The notes beneath the pieces were generated by a model. It ran no database searches. It saw only the letters and a program-made list of their open reading frames with translations, and was not told where the DNA came from. Source: Escherichia coli (GTDB lineage: Bacteria; Pseudomonadota; Gammaproteobacteria; Enterobacterales; Enterobacteriaceae). From it: a stretch of DNA of 64,000 nt. Location: NCBI RefSeq assembly GCF_001677475.2, contig NZ_CP015229.1; one strand, written 5' to 3'. Within the stretch, counting starts at the first letter, position 1; each line of letters starts with the position of its first letter. Below, one piece after another: positions 14,551-54,868 of the stretch. Both the position numbers and the translations under genes were made by a program.

Positions 14551-15046
14551 AGATGTCGCGAAAAGTCGCCTGAAGATGAGTAATCCGTGGCATCTGCTTG
14601 CTGTCGGATTCGGAAGTGGATTAAGCCCAATCATTCCTGGCACGATGGGATCGCTGGCGGCGATTCCGTTCTGGTATCTGATGACCTTTTTGCCCTGGCA
14701 GCTCTATTCGCTGGTGGTGATGCTGGGGATCTGTATCGGTGTGTATCTTTGTCATCAAACGGCGAAAGACATGGGCGTGCACGATCACGGCAGCATTGTC
14801 TGGGACGAATTTATTGGTATGTGGATCACGCTCATGGCGCTGCCGACCAATGACTGGCCGTGGGTCGCCGCCGGGTTTGTGATTTTCCGTATCCTGGATA
14901 TGTGGAAACCGTGGCCGATCCGCTGGTTTGATCGCAATGTACATGGCGGCATGGGGATCATGATCGATGATATTGTCGCTGGGGTGATTTCTGCTGGAAT
15001 ACTCTATTTTATCGGCCATCACTGGCCGATGGGTATTCTGTCGTAG
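14528..15046 (+). CDS. pgpA: Phosphatidylglycerophosphatase A
   Basis: 172-aa ORF overlapping the thiL 3' end by 23 nt; [31 protein letters not shown]... Confidence 0.93.
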
Positions 15047-15123
15047 GCCGAATAAGGCGTTCACGCCGCATCCGGCGGTTGCGCACTGATGCCTGATACG
15101 ACGTGAACGCCTTATCAGGCCTG
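15047..15123. repeat. REP element pair between pgpA and yajO
   Basis: gccgaataaggcgttcacgccgcatccggc ... gcctgatacgacgtgaacgccttatcaggcc, inverted REP palindromes. Confidence 0.7.
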
Positions 15124-15128
15124 GATAT

Positions 15129-16103
15129 CTATTTAAATCCTACTATCGGATGGGATTTATACGGCGTTTCCAGTTCGGCAATCTGCTCTGGTTTTAGCGT
15201 GATATCCACCGCGTTCAGCAACTCATCAAGCTGTTCTTCCCGCGAAGTTCCGATAATCGGCGCGGCAATGCCCGGTTTGCTCAATAGCCACGCCAGCGCC
15301 ACTTGTGCTCGCGTAGCCCCCAATTCTTCACTCACGCCCGTTAATCGTTCTGCAATCTGCGCGTCATTTTCGTCGCTTTCGTTGTAGAGATTTTTTCCTA
15401 CTTCATCGGAAACTAATCGTGCGGTGGTTTCTCCCCACGGACGAGTCAGACGGCCCCGCGCCAGCGGGCTCCACGGAATCACCGCTACGCCTTCCTGATA
15501 ACACAGCGGCAGCATCTCGCGCTCTTCTTCACGATAAATCAGATTGTAGTGATCCTGCATACTGACAAACTGCGCCCAGCCGTGCTGTTTTTGTAGTTCC
15601 AGTGCTTGAGCAAACTGCGAAGCGTGCATGGATGACGCGCCGATATAACGCGCTTTCCCGGCTTTTACCACATCGTTCAGGGCTTCAAGCGTCTCTTCGA
15701 TCGGCGTGTTGTAATCCCAGCGATGGATTTGCAGGATATCGACATAATCCATACCGAGACGACGCAGGCTGTCGTCAATAGAGCGCAAAATTTGTGCGCG
15801 GGATAATCCTTCCGGCAAATCACCGACACGATGGAATACTTTGGTGGCAACGACCACGTCTTCACGACGGGCGAAATCCCGTAGTGCGCGACCGACGATC
15901 TCTTCGCTGCTGCCGTCAGAATAACTGTTGGCGGTATCAAAGAAATTTATGCCGCCTTCCAGCGCACGTTTGATGATTGGACGGCTGCTCTCTTCCGGCA
16001 GTGTCCATGCGTGATTACCGCGATCTGGCTCGCCAAAGGTCATACAGCCAAGGCAAAGTCGGGAAACGCGAAGGTCGGTTTTTCCTAAGGGGTTGTATTG
16101 CAT
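15129..16103 (-). CDS. yajO: Aldo-keto reductase YajO
   Basis: 324-aa ORF, MQYNPLGKTDLRVSRLCLGCMTFG... Confidence 0.93.
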   Translation of the reverse strand: MQYNPLGKTDLRVSRLCLGCMTFGEPDRGNHAWTLPEESSRPIIKRALEGGINFFDTANSYSDGSSEEIVGRALRDFARREDVVVATKVFHRVGDLPEGLSRAQILRSIDDSLRRLGMDYVDILQIHRWDYNTPIEETLEALNDVVKAGKARYIGASSMHASQFAQALELQKQHGWAQFVSMQDHYNLIYREEEREMLPLCYQEGVAVIPWSPLARGRLTRPWGETTARLVSDEVGKNLYNESDENDAQIAERLTGVSEELGATRAQVALAWLLSKPGIAAPIIGTSREEQLDELLNAVDITLKPEQIAELETPYKSHPIVGFK

Positions 16104-16157
16104 GCTGCCACTCCTGCCATGAATAATTTCTTAAGCATAGCAGGAGTGGAGTAGGGA

Positions 16158-23144: not shown

Positions 23145-24509
23145 TTATGCCTGACGAATTGCCTGTTCAACCTCAAAGCGATTCGTCACTTTGCTGTCGA
23201 TTTTCACATAAGCTGAATGTTCTTCTTCTGCAATCAACACTTCTTTGACACCCGCGGTTTCCAGCAAACGCACTTTTAACGCCTCGTTTGCGGCAATGTC
23301 CGCCGGGATTTCAATGCGTAAGCTGCTGACATACGGCGGTTCTTTCATGGTACTGGCGACTGCCAGCCACACTGCGGCCAGCATTGCGCCAGCGAGAAAT
23401 ACGCCCTGACCGTCAAACATGCCGTCAATCCAGCCGCCCAGCGAACCGCCAATCGCCACGCCAAGAAACTGGCTGGTGGAGTAAACACCCATCGACGTAC
23501 CTTTGTAACCTGCTGGCGACTCTTTACTGATAAGTGAAGGCAGAAGGGCTTCCATCAAATTAAACGCCACAAAGAAAAGCTGCACGCCGACCACCAGTTG
23601 CCAGAACTGCGTTTGTGCGTTCCACAACACAATTTCCGCAACCACGATCAACCCGACGCAGAAGACAAAGACTTGCTTCATTTTGCGCTTAACTTCAGCG
23701 TAGATAATGAAAGGCACGACCGAGCCAAAGGCGATTAACATCGTTGCCAGGTAGACCTTCCAGTGTTCAGCCGCCGGAAATCCCGCATCAGCCAGTTGCC
23801 CTGGCAGGGCAACAAACGTCGACATCAGCAAAATATGCAGACACATAATGCCAAAGTTGAGTTTCAGCAGCCGCGGTTCCGCCAGCACTTTACTGAAACT
23901 GCCTTTCACCATCCCGGATTCACGATTAAGTACGTGAGTGCTACTGTTGGGCACAACCCAAATGGTCAACGCAATGCCGGTTGTTGCCAGAATAGCGATC
24001 ATCCAGAACAGCGCGTGCAGCCCAAGTTTGTGAGTGATGATCGGGCCAAGCACCATCGCAATGGCAAAGGTAATGCCAAAGCTCACGCCGATAAACGCCA
24101 TCGCTTTGGTGCGGTTTTGTTCGCGCGTGAGATCGGAAAGCAGCGCCATAACGGCAGCGGCAATCGCACCGGAGCCTTGTAGCGCCCGGCCCAGAATAAC
24201 TCCCCAAATGGAGTCAGAAAGCGCAGCGATAACGCTACCGGCGGCAAACACCGCCAGCCCACCGACAATTAATGGTTTGCGACCAATGCGGTCGGAAAGC
24301 AGACCAAACGGAATCTGAAAAACGGCCTGCGTCAGACCATAAATACCAATGGCAATACCGATTAATGCTTCGCTGGCACCTTGCAGAGCCATGCCGTACG
24401 TGGTCAGAACCGGCAGAACCATAAACATGCCCAGCATGCGCAACGAGAATACGGTCCCTAAACCCCAGGTCGCGCGCCTCTCACCTGGCGTCATTTTATA
24501 ATCGTTCAT
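23145..24509 (-). CDS. yajR: MFS transporter YajR
   Basis: ORF 23145..24707 trimmed to MNDYKMTPGERRATWGLGTVF...; 454 aa, multiple hydrophobic helices. Confidence 0.92.
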   Translation of the reverse strand: MNDYKMTPGERRATWGLGTVFSLRMLGMFMVLPVLTTYGMALQGASEALIGIAIGIYGLTQAVFQIPFGLLSDRIGRKPLIVGGLAVFAAGSVIAALSDSIWGVILGRALQGSGAIAAAVMALLSDLTREQNRTKAMAFIGVSFGITFAIAMVLGPIITHKLGLHALFWMIAILATTGIALTIWVVPNSSTHVLNRESGMVKGSFSKVLAEPRLLKLNFGIMCLHILLMSTFVALPGQLADAGFPAAEHWKVYLATMLIAFGSVVPFIIYAEVKRKMKQVFVFCVGLIVVAEIVLWNAQTQFWQLVVGVQLFFVAFNLMEALLPSLISKESPAGYKGTSMGVYSTSQFLGVAIGGSLGGWIDGMFDGQGVFLAGAMLAAVWLAVASTMKEPPYVSSLRIEIPADIAANEALKVRLLETAGVKEVLIAEEEHSAYVKIDSKVTNRFEVEQAIRQA

Positions 24510-24657
24510 TACCACCTCTGTTTTAAATTCGCGACTAGTGTAAAGCGGCAAACGAATGGGGTAAACATGCGGATTTTTTAGTAAATATTTCGAGAGGGAT
24601 ATGTTTCTAATGCTAAGAAAAAAGGTGCCGTAGCACCTTTTTAATAGAGAGATTGTG

Positions 24658-25548
24658 TTACCACACAGCAGCCAGCAGCGTATGCGAATCCGGCACCATA
24701 AAATCAACGGACATCATCACCGAGAGGGCAGTGATGGCGATGATAGAGAAGCCGAACAGCTTGCGCGCCCAGATTCTGTCATCAGCAACTTTATAACCGC
24801 GCAGAGCCATTCCTAACCACCAGACGCTCACCGCCGCGGCGACCACCAGATATTTATATCCAGCGTAACCGCCAAGAGAGAGCATCAGCGTGGCAACGGC
24901 AAAGGCGATGATATACAGCGTGATGTGATTCTTCGCCACCGAAATGCCTTTTACCACTGGTAATACCGGAATGTTTGCCGCCTGGTAATCCTTAAAGCGG
25001 AAAATGGCGATGGCATAGGAGTGAGGCATCTGCCACAGGCTGAAGATAGCCAGCAGGATCGCTGCGCCGCTATCGAACTCGCCGGTTACCGCACAGTAGC
25101 CGATCACCGGCGGCGCAGCGCCGGAAAGCGAACCAATCAACGTGCCGTAGACCGAGTGGCGTTTCATATACAGGCTATAGACGCCGACATAAACCACAAA
25201 GCCCATCACCCCCAGCCAGCAGGCCAGCGGATTCGCGCCAAACCACAGCAGCATAAAGCCAGCAATACCCAGCAAGGTGGCGTACACCAGCGAGACAGCA
25301 GGAGAGATCAGGCCTTTAACCAGCACCCGATTCTTCGTCCTTTCCATCTTTCTGTCGATATCCCTGTCGATGTAGTTGTTAAACACACAACCCGACGCCA
25401 CAACCAGTGACACCCCAACCAGCGTGTAGATAAACAGGGGATAATCAATGCTGCCCTTTGAGGCCAGCAGGAATCCCCCAATCACCGAGATCAGGTTGCC
25501 AAAGATGATGCCTGGTTTCGTTACTTGCAGGTATTGCTTAAACATCAT
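24658..25548 (-). CDS. cyoE: Heme O synthase (protoheme IX farnesyltransferase)
   Basis: ORF trimmed to [22 protein letters not shown]...; 296 aa. Confidence 0.93.
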
Positions 25549-31431: not shown

Positions 31432-32010
31432 TTAACGCGCGTTCTGCTTGATGAATTCGTGAATGCTGGTGTCCTGAGACATATCAGCGATGGTATCGGT
31501 CAGCACACTGTTAACCGCATCGGCGATATTTTTGTTGGAGGCCTGGAACGCACCTTCAACGTTGTAGCTGGCACGATAGTTTTTGGTCATTTTGTTGCCA
31601 TTCTGCGCGGTAGCGATGATGGCGATATCCGCTTTGGTAGCGATGTTGTAGCGCACGTTGCCCTGGGACACGTCAGCATACAGTTGGCTAACGATGATTT
31701 GCAGATTAACTGGGCCATTCGGACCAACCATGTAACCACGCGCGGTCATCTGTTTTTCCAGTACTTCTTGCAGCAGGAAACGCAGATCGCGGGAGGCGGT
31801 CAGGGTAACGATTTGATTATCGCGGGTGACTTTTGCCAGCGCCTGATCGGTACGCTGATCGGCACCATTAATGCTTACGGTGACGCCCATCAGGCTCGGA
31901 TCCTGCTGTGGCAGTGTAATCGTCGGTGAAACTTCAATAGTTGTTGGCGGTTTTGCGCATCCTGCAAGCATAAACAGAGCAACTAACGGGAAGAGGATTT
32001 TTTTGAACAT
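31432..32010 (-). CDS. yajG: Lipoprotein YajG
   Basis: ORF 31432..32169 trimmed to MFKKILFPLVALFMLAGC (lipobox); 192 aa. Confidence 0.9.
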   Translation of the reverse strand: MFKKILFPLVALFMLAGCAKPPTTIEVSPTITLPQQDPSLMGVTVSINGADQRTDQALAKVTRDNQIVTLTASRDLRFLLQEVLEKQMTARGYMVGPNGPVNLQIIVSQLYADVSQGNVRYNIATKADIAIIATAQNGNKMTKNYRASYNVEGAFQASNKNIADAVNSVLTDTIADMSQDTSIHEFIKQNAR

Positions 32011-32314
32011 GTTCGGGCTCTCAGAGACTCTTAAGCGTGTTTGGTAAAAATTCCCGCCATCATAACATTGCCAACGGCGAGGGGAAGTGGGTAAGGCATG
32101 TAAATTCATCATGTTGACGAAATAATCGCCCCTGGTAAAAGAAACGCTGATGCGAGGCCGGTGTTTCAATCTTTAAATCAGTAAACTTCATACGCTTGAC
32201 GGAAAAACCAGGACGAAACCTAAATATTTGTTGTTAAGCTGCAATGGAAACGGTAAAAGCGGCTAGTATTTAAAGGGATGGATGACATCTCAGCGTTGTC
32301 GGAGGAGATATTTC

Positions 32315-32632
32315 ATGATGATACGTGAGCGGATAGAAGAAAAATTAAGGGCGGCGTTCCAACCCGTATTCCTCGAAGTAGTGGATGAAAGCTATCGTCA
32401 CAATGTCCCAGCCGGCTCTGAAAGCCATTTTAAAGTTGTGCTGGTCAGCGATCGTTTTACGGGTGAACGTTTTCTGAATCGTCATCGAATGATTTACAGT
32501 ACTTTAGCGGAGGAACTCTCTACTACCGTTCATGCGCTGGCTCTGCATACTTACACTATTAAGGAGTGGGAAGGGTTGCAGGACACCGTCTTTGCCTCTC
32601 CTCCCTGTCGTGGAGCAGGAAGCATCGCGTAA
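32315..32632 (+). CDS. bolA: Stress-response and morphogene regulator BolA
   Basis: ORF 32282..32632 trimmed to [17 protein letters not shown]...; 105 aa. Confidence 0.92.
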
Positions 32633-32966
32633 AAACGCATTTGCAACTGTCGGCGCTTTTCCAGTATGTTGCTAAAGATTTTATGAAAAACGGCCTGCGG
32701 GCCGTTTTGTTTTGTCTGGATTTTGCGCTTTTTGCCCAGCATTCAGACGAAAATTGCCCGGGAATTGTGAAAAAATACGCGACAGCGCGCAATAACCGTT
32801 CTCGACTCATAAAAGTGATGCCGCTATAATGCCGCGTCCTATTTGAATGCTTTCGGGATGATTCTGGTAACAGGGAATGTGATTGATTATAAGAACATCC
32901 CGGTTCCGCGAAGCCAACAACCTGTGCTTGCGGGGTAAGAGTTGACCGAGCACTGTGATTTTTTGA

Positions 32967-34274
<1,308 letters not shown>

Positions 34275-36543: not shown

Positions 36544-36620
36544 TTAACCATTCCCATACAATTAGTTAACCAAAAAGGGGGGATTTTATCTCCCCTTTAA
36601 TTTTTCCTCTATTCTCGGCG

Positions 36621-36650
36621 TTGAATGTGGGGGAAACATCCCCATATACT
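36621..36650 (+). promoter_or_regulatory. lon heat-shock (sigma-32 type) promoter
   Basis: ttgaat at 36621-36626, then ccccatatact at 36640-36650; resembles the sigma-32 consensus; about 80 bp upstream of the lon ATG. Confidence 0.55.
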
Positions 36651-36730
36651 GACGTACATGTTAATAGATGGCGTGAAGCACAGTCGTGTCATCTGATTAC
36701 CTGGCGGAAATTAAACTAAGAGAGAGCTCT

Positions 36731-39085
36731 ATGAATCCTGAGCGTTCTGAACGCATTGAAATCCCCGTATTGCCGCTGCGCGATGTGGTGGTTTATCCGC
36801 ACATGGTCATCCCCTTATTTGTCGGGCGGGAAAAATCTATCCGTTGTCTGGAAGCGGCGATGGACCATGATAAAAAAATTATGCTGGTCGCGCAGAAAGA
36901 AGCTTCAACGGATGAGCCGGGTGTAAACGATCTTTTCACCGTCGGGACCGTGGCCTCTATATTGCAGATGCTGAAACTGCCTGACGGCACCGTCAAAGTG
37001 CTGGTCGAGGGGTTACAGCGCGCGCGTATTTCTGCGCTCTCTGACAATGGCGAACACTTTTCTGCGAAGGCGGAGTATCTGGAGTCGCCGACCATTGATG
37101 AGCGGGAACAGGAAGTGCTGGTGCGTACTGCAATCAGCCAGTTCGAAGGCTACATCAAGCTGAACAAAAAAATCCCACCAGAAGTGCTGACGTCGCTGAA
37201 TAGCATCGACGATCCGGCGCGTCTGGCGGATACCATTGCTGCACATATGCCGCTGAAACTGGCTGACAAACAGTCCGTTCTGGAGATGTCCGACGTTAAC
37301 GAACGTCTGGAATATCTGATGGCAATGATGGAATCGGAAATCGATCTGCTGCAGGTTGAGAAACGCATTCGCAACCGTGTTAAAAAGCAGATGGAGAAAT
37401 CCCAGCGTGAGTACTATCTGAACGAGCAAATGAAAGCTATTCAGAAAGAACTCGGTGAAATGGACGACGCACCGGACGAAAACGAAGCCCTGAAGCGCAA
37501 AATCGACGCGGCGAAGATGCCGAAAGAGGCAAAAGAGAAAGCGGAAGCAGAGTTGCAGAAGCTGAAAATGATGTCTCCGATGTCGGCAGAAGCGACCGTA
37601 GTGCGTGGTTATATCGACTGGATGGTACAGGTGCCGTGGAATGCGCGTAGCAAGGTCAAAAAAGACCTGCGTCAGGCGCAGGAAATCCTTGATACCGACC
37701 ATTATGGTCTGGAGCGCGTGAAAGATCGTATCCTTGAGTATCTTGCGGTTCAAAGCCGTGTCAACAAAATCAAGGGACCGATCCTCTGTCTGGTAGGGCC
37801 GCCGGGGGTAGGTAAAACGTCCCTGGGTCAGTCCATTGCCAAAGCCACCGGGCGTAAATATGTCCGTATGGCGCTGGGCGGCGTGCGTGATGAAGCGGAA
37901 ATCCGTGGTCACCGCCGTACTTACATCGGTTCTATGCCGGGTAAACTGATCCAGAAAATGGCGAAAGTGGGCGTGAAAAACCCGCTGTTCCTGCTTGATG
38001 AGATCGACAAAATGTCTTCTGACATGCGTGGCGATCCGGCCTCCGCACTGCTTGAAGTGCTGGATCCAGAGCAGAACGTAGCGTTCAGCGACCACTACCT
38101 GGAAGTGGATTACGATCTCAGCGACGTGATGTTTGTCGCGACGTCGAACTCCATGAACATTCCGGCACCGCTGCTGGATCGTATGGAAGTGATTCGCCTC
38201 TCCGGTTATACCGAAGATGAAAAACTGAACATCGCCAAACGTCACCTGCTGCCGAAGCAGATTGAACGTAATGCACTGAAAAAAGGTGAGCTGACCGTCG
38301 ACGATAGCGCCATTATCGGCATTATTCGTTACTACACCCGTGAGGCGGGCGTGCGTGGTCTGGAGCGTGAAATCTCCAAACTGTGCCGCAAAGCGGTTAA
38401 GCAGTTGCTGCTCGATAAGTCATTAAAACATATCGAAATTAACGGCGATAACCTGCATGACTATCTCGGTGTTCAGCGTTTCGACTATGGACGCGCGGAT
38501 AACGAAAACCGTGTTGGTCAGGTAACTGGTCTGGCGTGGACGGAAGTGGGCGGTGACTTGCTGACCATTGAAACCGCGTGCGTTCCGGGTAAAGGCAAAC
38601 TGACCTATACCGGATCGCTTGGCGAAGTGATGCAGGAGTCCATTCAGGCGGCGTTAACGGTGGTTCGTGCGCGTGCGGAAAAACTGGGGATCAACCCTGA
38701 TTTTTACGAAAAACGCGACATCCACGTCCACGTACCGGAAGGTGCGACGCCGAAAGATGGTCCGAGTGCCGGTATTGCTATGTGCACCGCGCTGGTTTCT
38801 TGCCTGACCGGTAACCCGGTTCGTGCCGATGTGGCAATGACCGGTGAGATCACTCTGCGTGGTCAGGTACTGCCGATCGGTGGTTTGAAAGAAAAACTAC
38901 TGGCAGCGCATCGCGGCGGGATTAAAACAGTGCTAATTCCGTTCGAAAATAAACGCGATCTGGAAGAGATTCCTGACAACGTAATTGCCGATCTGGACAT
39001 TCATCCTGTGAAGCGCATTGAGGAAGTTCTGACTCTGGCGCTGCAAAATGAACCGTCTGGCATGCAGGTTGTGACTGCAAAATAG
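36731..39085 (+). CDS. lon: ATP-dependent protease Lon
   Basis: ORF 36686..39085 trimmed to [25 protein letters not shown]...; 784 aa; Walker [10 protein letters not shown], catalytic PKDGPSAG. Confidence 0.96.
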
Positions 39086-53824: not shown

Positions 53825-54214
53825 TTAGTAGTTCCAGCGATAACGCTGCAAGTCGATTTGCCCGCTTCCCGATACCATCACACCTTCTGCCAGTAATGCC
53901 TGTCGTTGACGCTGTAAATCCGGTCCGGTTAGCGAAATTGTGCCGTGGCGATTAACCACCCGGTGCCAGGGCAAGGAGCTGCCTTCAGGGAGACGCTTTA
54001 ACACACCGCCCACCTGGCGCGCGGCGCGGGGCGATCCTGCCAGTTTCGCCACATCACCGTAAGTGGTGACATAGCCTTCGGGAATAGCGGCGACGATTTG
54101 CCAGACGCGTTGGGGAAATGAATCTTCTTTTTCCATCTTTTCTTCCTGAGGTAATTTTTCAGCATAATCTGGAAAAACGCCCGAGTGAAGTCGCATTGCG
54201 CAAGAAACCAGCAT
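53825..54214 (-). CDS. atl: DNA base-flipping alkyltransferase-like protein Atl (YbaZ)
   Basis: ORF 53825..54235; start placed at MLVSCAMRLHSGVFPDY to give 129 aa (from memory); MGMT-like fold without the active-site Cys (PWHRVV). Confidence 0.85.
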   Translation of the reverse strand: MLVSCAMRLHSGVFPDYAEKLPQEEKMEKEDSFPQRVWQIVAAIPEGYVTTYGDVAKLAGSPRAARQVGGVLKRLPEGSSLPWHRVVNRHGTISLTGPDLQRQRQALLAEGVMVSGSGQIDLQRYRWNY

Positions 54215-54290
54215 CCGGCACGCAATGGGTTGCAATTAGCCGGGGCAGCAGTGATAATGCGCCTGCGCGTTGGTTCTCAACGCTCTCAAT

Positions 54291-54404
54291 GGGGGCTCTG
54301 TTGGTTCTCCCGCAACGCTACTCTGTTTACCAGGTCAGGTCCGGAAGGAAGCAGCCAAGGCAGATGACGCGTGTGCCGGGATGTAGCTGGCAGGGCCCCC
54401 ACCC
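54291..54404 (+). ncRNA. ffs: 4.5S RNA (signal recognition particle RNA)
   Basis: 114-nt sequence gggggctctgttggttctcccgcaacgctactctg...ggcagggcccccaccc recognised as the E. coli 4.5S RNA; 5' GGGGG pairs with the 3' CCCCC. Confidence 0.95.
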
Positions 54405-54514
54405 ATTTCTGCCTCCCCCCGTTTCGTCAAAAAATCCCAATATGGCTAAACTTTAACCACAACTGACGTCGCAAGAATTGTCTGGCTGCGCAGTACGCTT
54501 CGGAGGTATGTCTG

Positions 54515-54868
54515 ATGAAGTATGTTGATGGTTTTGTGGTTGCCGTTCCTGCCGATAAAAAGGATGCCTATCGGGAAATGGCTGCTAAGGCTGCGCCATT
54601 GTTTAAAGAGTTTGGCGCGCTTCGTATTGTCGAATGCTGGGCCAGCGATGTACCGGATGGCAAAGTGACCGATTTTCGTATGGCGGTGAAAGCGGAAGAA
54701 AATGAAGAGGTTGTCTTTAGCTGGATTGAATACCCTTCAAAAGAGGTCCGCGACGCAGCTAATCAAAAGATGATGTCGGACCCACGGATGAAAGAGTTCG
54801 GCGAGTCCATGCCGTTTGACGGCAAGCGAATGATCTATGGCGGATTCGAGTCAATCATCGACGAATAG
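54515..54868 (+). CDS. ybaA: DUF1428 family protein YbaA
   Basis: 117-aa ORF, MKYVDGFVVAVPADKKDAYREMAAKAAPLFKEFGAL... Confidence 0.92.
   Translation: MKYVDGFVVAVPADKKDAYREMAAKAAPLFKEFGALRIVECWASDVPDGKVTDFRMAVKAEENEEVVFSWIEYPSKEVRDAANQKMMSDPRMKEFGESMPFDGKRMIYGGFESIIDE

Follow-up and report, generated by a model that had tools for sequence, protein, structure and literature searches.

A 64-kb window of an Escherichia coli chromosome has ffs as its one classical stable RNA gene and carries a malZ/acpH insert that is not tRNA-targeted

One kind of genomic island is associated with transfer RNA (tRNA) or transfer-messenger RNA (tmRNA) genes, carries a P4-type tyrosine integrase and spans tens of kilobases; the locus of enterocyte effacement (LEE) at selC or pheU is an example. 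The 4.5S RNA encoded by ffs is made as a precursor with a short 5' leader that RNase P cuts off, and the signal recognition particle (SRP) arises when Ffh is bound by the region of its GGAA tetraloop (domain IV); FtsY and the Sec translocon receive nascent inner-membrane proteins from this particle. Here we analyse a 64-kb stretch of an Escherichia coli chromosome (the window, by which we mean the whole stretch of DNA) that holds ffs near one end and, at the other, a small insert between malZ and acpH. Between the 3' end of malZ and acrR the window and K-12 MG1655 (~423.85–486.16 kb) are collinear, at 97–98.5% identity, and the window's closest complete-genome match over 25 kb is 99.0% identical. 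Only three structural differences separate it from K-12: 486–2154 (the 'island'), 2731–2855 and 15047–15077. An earlier note on this DNA had named ffs as the only RNA gene in the window and had concluded that the insert is not a tRNA-targeted integrative element. Our own reading has four parts, namely that ffs is canonical, that the window carries no tRNA or tmRNA gene, that the insert is a non-mobile islet, and that sraA, a pair of repetitive extragenic palindromic (REP) sequences and an enterobacterial repetitive intergenic consensus (ERIC) element make up the additional RNA features; jointly we give these a probability of roughly 0.9.

The ffs gene for the mature 114-nt 4.5S (SRP) RNA lies at 54291–54404 on the plus strand, exactly where the earlier note had placed it, and was recognised by its identity to K-12, its Rfam match, its fold and its synteny. 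All 114 of 114 positions are identical to K-12 ffs (b0455), and the Rfam family RF00169 (Bacteria_small_SRP) matches 54299–54395 with 68.1 bits against a gathering threshold of 40 (E = 5.5e-13), covering model positions 1–97 of 97. The predicted minimum free energy (MFE) fold is a single long hairpin of −57 kcal/mol (z = −3.15), closed by ...GUCCGGAAGGAAGC..., with a GGAA tetraloop. This fold, taken with the alignment to the RF00169 consensus, agrees with the conserved domain IV, in which the GGAA tetraloop sits between internal loops. The gene order ybaZ-ffs-ybaA is that of K-12, and an SRP_RNA is annotated at the same place in a relative too. Judged by its sequence, 54291–54404 is the canonical E. 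coli ffs gene: its sequence, synteny, GGAA hairpin and upstream promoter-like site are all like those of K-12 ffs and RF00169, with no differences detected.

The promoter-like site just mentioned, TTGCAA-17 nt-GATAAT at 54230–54258 (+), is the sole sigma-70-like site in 54000–54700, where shuffled sequence gave a mean of 0.4. Transcription from it would start roughly 25 nt 5' of the mature ffs end, which fits the known RNase P-cleaved leader of 4.5S RNA. We propose that ffs would be transcribed from this sigma-70-type promoter of its own and that the precursor would be trimmed, by processing that is established knowledge, to the 114-nt 4.5S RNA with its one long hairpin. From the identity to the experimentally characterised K-12 RNA, we infer that the product binds Ffh and takes part in co-translational targeting. 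The interval 54236–54514 is essentially the ybaZ(atl)-ybaA intergenic region, beginning immediately after the −35 hexamer of ffs and ending one position short of the ATG of ybaA (54515). Its last part, the ffs-ybaA spacer at 54405–54514 (+), which is both the 3' flank of ffs and the upstream region of ybaA, showed no further RNA element, with no Rfam match at E ≤ 1 and no convincing terminator-like site. From ffs to the right edge of the insert the distance is 52,143 bp, in agreement with the earlier statement that more than 50 kb lie between them.

The insert itself is a 1.66-kb, AT-rich islet at 486–2148 (+), lying between the convergent stop codons of malZ (483–485) and acpH (2149–2151) and absent from K-12. 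In K-12 the two stop codons are 4 bp apart, and the non-homologous segment measures 1669 bp in the window against 10 bp there. The islet consists of a 185-bp non-coding left arm, one open reading frame (ORF) of 485 aa at 671–2128, and a 20-bp right arm, and its G+C content (GC) is 30–40%, compared with 51% for the window. On the left it is flanked by the 3' end of malZ (1–485, +; 96.9% identical to K-12 malZ) and on the right by acpH (2149–2730, −; 193 aa, MNFLAHLH...RKAL-stop), which is 95.7% identical to K-12 acpH and has a ratio of non-synonymous to synonymous divergence (dN/dS) of 0.02–0.06. The final sense codon and stop of acpH (2149–2154) read CTC-TGA against TTA-TAA in K-12, a synonymous difference that falls within the segment replaced along with the islet.

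Presence or absence of the islet was counted over 5426 complete E. coli genomes. It was found in 1126 of them, always in single copy and always in the chromosome. The left arm is likewise single-copy, occurs in exactly the 1126 genomes that have the ORF, and has no match outside the islet, which shows that it is not a dispersed repeat. As all genomes carry tRNA genes, the lack of matches elsewhere also means that the arm holds no tRNA-derived stretch of at least ~30 nt (a length estimated from the E-value limit). The occupied sites that we compared, four in number (the window, EDL933, 3CM and ETEC1738), share identical junctions on both sides. Within the left arm, 34 nt past the malZ stop, 519–564 forms an inverted repeat with 20-nt arms that are 80% complementary, and this may be a terminator-type hairpin for malZ. 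As an RNA element it was dropped, since its stability is not significant against shuffles (z = −1.4) and the arm has no repeat copies elsewhere.

The search for tRNA and tmRNA genes came out negative. ARAGORN, run over the full 64-kb window, returned none. Rfam scans covered the window at the gathering threshold and at E ≤ 1, and 1–3200 at E ≤ 10 under less stringent filtering; beyond ffs, neither of the two permissive settings gave a match to a tRNA, a tmRNA or any other stable RNA. A T-arm motif query, GGTTCGAATCC with up to 2 mismatches, matched the window 15 times where 17.9 matches are expected by chance, the nearest lying at 5814, 3.6 kb off the insert. As the window extends for just 485 bp on the left side of the insert, we used instead a relative that bears the same insert, ECamp083, with 20 kb on either side. 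In these 43 kb neither the annotation nor ARAGORN gives a tRNA or tmRNA, and the sole Rfam match is STnc490, beside the strain's IS200 transposase gene. Consistent with this, no RNA gene is annotated between rdgC/proY and cyoB in O157 Sakai or K-12. The earlier claim that no tRNA lies near the island is thereby borne out, and the permissive Rfam scan, the T-arm query and the repeat search described below brought up no tRNA or tmRNA gene or fragment near 486–2148. Over the window as a whole, too, no recognisable piece of a tRNA or tmRNA gene came up. The identification of ffs and the finding of no tRNA are both correct, far beyond chance.

Absence of a tRNA alone leaves other kinds of site-specific integration possible; what settles the matter is that integrase and attachment-site (att) repeats are missing as well. 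A repeat search found no direct or inverted repeats linking the edges of 486–2148. The insert carries no integrase, transposase or excisionase, and its single ORF belongs to no known family in Pfam, NCBIfam, PHROG or PADLOC. Against 50,697 phage records the islet had no match. Nor was it found on any true plasmid: only two 'plasmid' records matched, and at ~4.9 Mb each these are chromosome-sized. The other RNA features in the window (sraA, the REP pair and the ERIC element) are not known as targets of integration, nor does any of them border on the insert. With tRNA-associated islands the insert shares low GC and strain-variable presence. It differs from them in lacking an adjacent tRNA, an integrase and att direct repeats, the three defining features of a tRNA- or tmRNA-targeted island that were tested, and also in its size of 1.66 kb and its single gene. 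That the malZ/acpH insert is no tRNA-targeted integrative element, as had been concluded before from the missing tRNA, is thus supported by the tRNA, T-arm, repeat, integrase and left-arm tests alike. The insert is a small, non-mobile, single-gene, AT-rich islet.

The claim of a single RNA gene, ffs, for the window did not hold in that form, because Rfam at the gathering threshold adds two matches, sraA and naRNA4. A scan of the window, as the earlier note had advised, accordingly confirmed the absence of tRNA and tmRNA genes by ARAGORN and Rfam, while the expected absence of other non-coding RNA genes failed on these two. The small RNA (sRNA) gene sraA (SraA/psrA/t15) lies in the clpX-lon spacer at 36564–36659 on the minus strand, antisense to the lon upstream region, and matches RF02029 over the full model length (1–95) with 106.7 bits against a gathering threshold of 56. 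The spacer is identical to K-12 at 213 of 213 positions. Compared with the described SraA, the window copy is therefore a full-length, K-12-identical match at the same clpX-lon place on the opposite strand, without any sequence difference. A G+C-rich bidirectional hairpin at 36574–36598 shows terminator-like sites on both strands: on the plus strand it resembles a terminator for clpX and on the minus strand, by the Rfam structure line, it is the 3' hairpin of sraA. On the minus strand a sigma-70-like promoter for sraA was looked for and not found, and the gene is annotated neither by RefSeq in MG1655 nor by the Prokaryotic Genome Annotation Pipeline (PGAP). In the literature, one table of sRNAs derived from E. 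coli places SraA between clpX and lon (PMC3384567), and another has it among the EcoCyc-annotated sRNAs (PMC12306157, Table 1). A 2025 RNA-seq study of K-12 expression reported its detection under all growth conditions (PMC12266141), and its overexpression gave no phenotype (PMC4606813). Another EcoCyc sRNA, nc1, is listed between eyeA and sraA (PMC12306157) and may or may not lie in the window; it has no Rfam match, and RefSeq does not annotate it here.

The naRNA4 match (RF02564) corresponds to a REP pair, a palindromic repeat of the bacterial interspersed mosaic element (BIME) type, at 15046–15121, directly 3' of the pgpA stop and between the convergent genes pgpA and yajO. It scores 63.7 bits on the minus strand, against a gathering threshold of 59.5, and 59.1 bits, just below that threshold, on the plus strand at the same coordinates. 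This scoring on both strands reflects the palindromic nature of 15046–15121. The pgpA-yajO spacer is ~31 bp longer in the window than in K-12. REPs have been described as terminator or stabiliser elements of 3' untranslated regions, and the nucleoid role of naRNA4 is disputed (bioRxiv 10.64898/2026.03.23.713779). The naRNA4 match is one to REP palindromes and not a sign of REP325 orthology, and we count it as a repeat and not as a gene. Together with the ERIC element at 2731–2858 it belongs to the REP/BIME and ERIC/intergenic repeat unit (IRU) repeats of enterobacteria, which are dispersed and transcribed within mRNAs and are not dedicated RNA genes.

ERIC/IRU repeats are imperfect palindromes of ~127 bp whose conserved central inverted repeat holds the ERIC1R and ERIC2 primer sites. 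The one at 2731–2858 lies in the acpH-queA spacer, 583 bp from the insert, and is absent from K-12 and O157. It was recognised by its fold and by motifs that we take to be the ERIC1R and ERIC2 primer sequences: ERIC1R matches 20 of 22 positions at 2795–2816 (+) and ERIC2 20 of 22 at 2772–2793 (−), back to back, where chance would give 0. The element (128 nt) folds end to end as one long imperfect hairpin (z = −3.7). Rfam also placed V_AS5 on it (2734–2858), weakly, with 35 bits against 96; a Vibrio-type antisense RNA was ruled out here, the match being explained by the ERIC element. The spacer measures 218 bp both in the window, where islet and repeat are present, and in SSGNw1, which has the repeat without the islet. 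In EDL933 and 3CM, with the islet and without the repeat, it is 92 bp, as it is in K-12; in ETEC1738, which has the islet and a longer form of the repeat, it is 295 bp. Across the strains compared, the presence of ERIC is thus independent of that of the insert.

How many RNA genes the window holds depends on what is accepted as a gene. Under a strict count ffs would be the sole one, sraA being antisense or read-through transcription that ends at the clpX terminator, and REP and ERIC being repeats. RefSeq MG1655 and PGAP indeed give ffs alone in this stretch, which also agrees with the earlier note's wording that ffs is the only stable RNA gene. The missing sigma-70-like promoter upstream of 36659 on the minus strand, the double use of the sraA 3' hairpin as clpX terminator, and the overexpression result cited above (PMC4606813) all fit such a count, as do the palindromic, two-strand scoring of naRNA4 and the dispute over its nucleoid role. 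Against it stand a full-length score that is nearly twice the gathering threshold of a curated Rfam family, a locus 100% identical to K-12, and the fact that SraA is both EcoCyc-annotated (PMC12306157) and detected by RNA-seq in all conditions (PMC12266141). We regard the strict count as somewhat unlikely. Our reading is that, of the classical stable RNA genes, the window has ffs alone, with further RNA features beside it.

As for the islet, one could suppose that it is the remnant of a tRNA-targeted or integrase-mediated island in which the tRNA or att sequence and the integrase have eroded past recognition. The low GC and the general prior that many islands use tRNA genes would speak for this. 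Yet tRNA and tmRNA are absent for at least 20 kb on either side in the relative and throughout the window, no integrase fragment and no bracketing repeats are present, and the insert is merely 1.66 kb long. Moreover, the flanking core genes are intact and their stops are 4 bp apart in K-12, which indicates that a tRNA gene was never there. A degraded island is hence extremely improbable. An AT-rich, single-gene, strain-variable segment might also be cargo left behind by a transposon or insertion sequence (IS) element, a phage or a plasmid, and copies of IS200/IS605 do occur nearby in related strains. Terminal inverted repeats, a target-site duplication and a transposase are all missing, however; phage records and true plasmids gave no match, and the left arm occurs nowhere else in any of the 5426 genomes. 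Such an origin we consider very unlikely.

We favour instead a single entry of the islet, by recombination that would not have been site-specific, at the point where the convergent stop codons leave a gap of 4 bp and an insertion disrupts no gene or promoter; homologous recombination in the core genes on either side would then have spread or removed the islet, so that it segregates as a presence/absence polymorphism. That the junctions agree exactly among the four occupied genomes points to a single ancestral event, and the one chromosomal copy in each of the 1126 genomes fits this history. Recombinational spread is supported by the low synonymous divergence (dS) between the window and EDL933, which is 0.034 for the ORF and 0.17 for the adjacent acpH (~5-fold lower), a contrast that rests on ~10 synonymous differences. 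In the reverse history E. coli would have had the islet from the start, the 'empty' 4-bp junction seen in K-12 and ~79% of genomes would have been left by a deletion, and no insertion within E. coli would be needed. In its favour are the same junctions at 4 of 4 occupied sites, the gene's presence in diverse lineages (O157:H7, enterotoxigenic E. coli [ETEC], urinary isolates, Shigella dysenteriae) and the lack of visible insertion machinery. But a GC of 36.6% against 51% for the window is compositionally foreign, a dS below that of acpH fits recent spread better than ancient vertical descent, and a precise loss sparing both stops 4 bp apart would need to be the majority state. Ancestry followed by loss is unlikely on these grounds, and under either history the conclusion that the insert is not tRNA-targeted stands.

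Besides the small number of synonymous differences behind the dS contrast, a few other points weigh against our four-part reading and the history proposed for the islet. The window's own left side amounts to those 485 bp, the gap being covered through relatives only, and tRNA fragments shorter than ~30 nt and lacking the T-arm motif could slip past every test. The direction of change, read here within E. coli, may have been insertion or ancestral presence with loss elsewhere. Finally, the status of sraA as a gene is debatable, given the silence of RefSeq and PGAP, the missing minus-strand promoter-like site and the lack of an overexpression phenotype.

The only ORF of the islet (671–2128, +) encodes an orphan protein of 485 aa that is a 'hypothetical protein' in O157 Sakai (ECs_0454), in EDL933 (WP_000155946.1) and in all of the at least 120 homologues listed; the identical 485-aa sequence is on record from E. 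coli, for example as ANO87618.1. Its GC is 36.6%, with 34% at third codon positions (GC3), compared with 54% for acpH and 51% for the window. Among the matches listed, the named homologues are from Escherichia/Shigella or 'MULTISPECIES Enterobacteriaceae', with 89–97% identity, and lengths range from 462 to 493 aa in steps of 4. A 12-nt (4-codon) tandem repeat at 1503–1598 (+), with 5 copies at a spacing of 12 in a Lys/Glu/Ala-rich stretch, is probably the source of this in-frame length polymorphism. The protein gave nothing above threshold in Pfam, NCBIfam, PHROG or PADLOC and no match among solved structures. An exhaustive HMMER search of 1.84 billion cluster representatives returned its own cluster, fragments, and one marginal PKD-like match. 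That distant match (P0154, E = 5.6e-6) places residues ~102–158 on repeated PKD-type domains at 23–31% identity and was rejected as too weak. Sub-threshold Pfam matches to Cas_CT1975 (19 bits against 26), DUF3700 and QRICH1 were regarded as noise from the Lys/Glu-rich repeat, and so were a PADLOC match to Cas7e (E = 0.022), PHROGs (E = 0.006) and the PDB sequence search (E > 0.6). AlphaFold2, run on a 13-sequence family alignment, gave an unusable model, with a mean predicted local distance difference test (pLDDT) score of 35 and a predicted template modelling (pTM) score of 0.23. A literature search for ECs0454 found nothing, and the matches to Z0502 were unrelated.

Across five alleles the dN/dS of the ORF is 0.24–1.6, mostly ~0.8, against the 0.02–0.06 of acpH, and the reading frame is intact in 5 of 5 alleles despite up to ~10% amino-acid divergence. 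Most of these values lie close to neutrality, for an orphan restricted to Escherichia/Shigella. They could belong to a gene that is young or weakly constrained as well as to an interaction protein that evolves fast. That ECs_0454 is a functional, fast-evolving host- or phage-interaction factor, such as a secreted effector, is a doubtful suggestion; it comes from a Ser/Thr/Asn-rich N-terminus that, on our reading of the sequence, is compatible with an effector, and from the presence of espY3 at a neighbouring convergent junction in O157. Kinship between ECs_0454 and EspY3 themselves was rejected (E = 0.54).

Two other junctions in the window are variable among strains. At pgpA/yajO the window has only the REP pair, while O157 Sakai has espY3 (ECs_0472, type III secretion system effector-like; 31539–33110 of locus L009). 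ECamp083 carries at the same junction (36968–38539 of locus L007) a gene annotated as a pentapeptide-repeat protein, which at 1572 bp is of the same length as espY3. The adjoining yajO allele at 15078–16117 is 91.8% identical to K-12, against 97–98.5% for the rest of the window, which suggests that a divergent allele may have been imported beside this junction. In the secF-yajD spacer (8927–9009) there are sub-threshold REP-like Rfam matches, ES036 with 29.6 bits and naRNA4 with 34.7 bits; at this place Sakai (24258–24774 of locus L009) has ECs_0461, a 'transcriptional regulator', and ECs_0462, a 'plasmid stabilization system protein'. Both Sakai islets resemble the malZ/acpH insert in being small, strain-specific and set between core genes that are intact, without an annotated tRNA close by, and the espY3 site is, like malZ/acpH, a convergent junction. 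Their proteins are unrelated to the islet ORF, and in the window both sites are empty but for REP-type repeats.

Altogether, the RNA-related matter in this window is already known: ffs is among the best-known E. coli genes, and the annotations examined (MG1655, Sakai and PGAP) likewise show no tRNA here. The RNA inventory of the window is corrected by the addition of sraA, the REP pair and the ERIC element. The cargo of the islet is the only non-textbook matter here, and it concerns the island and not the RNA finding. For the malZ/acpH insert the result is a clean negative that strikes off the tRNA/integrase route. It shifts the focus to small non-mobile islets at convergent junctions that are exchanged by homologous recombination of their flanks, of which the espY3 site is a second example.

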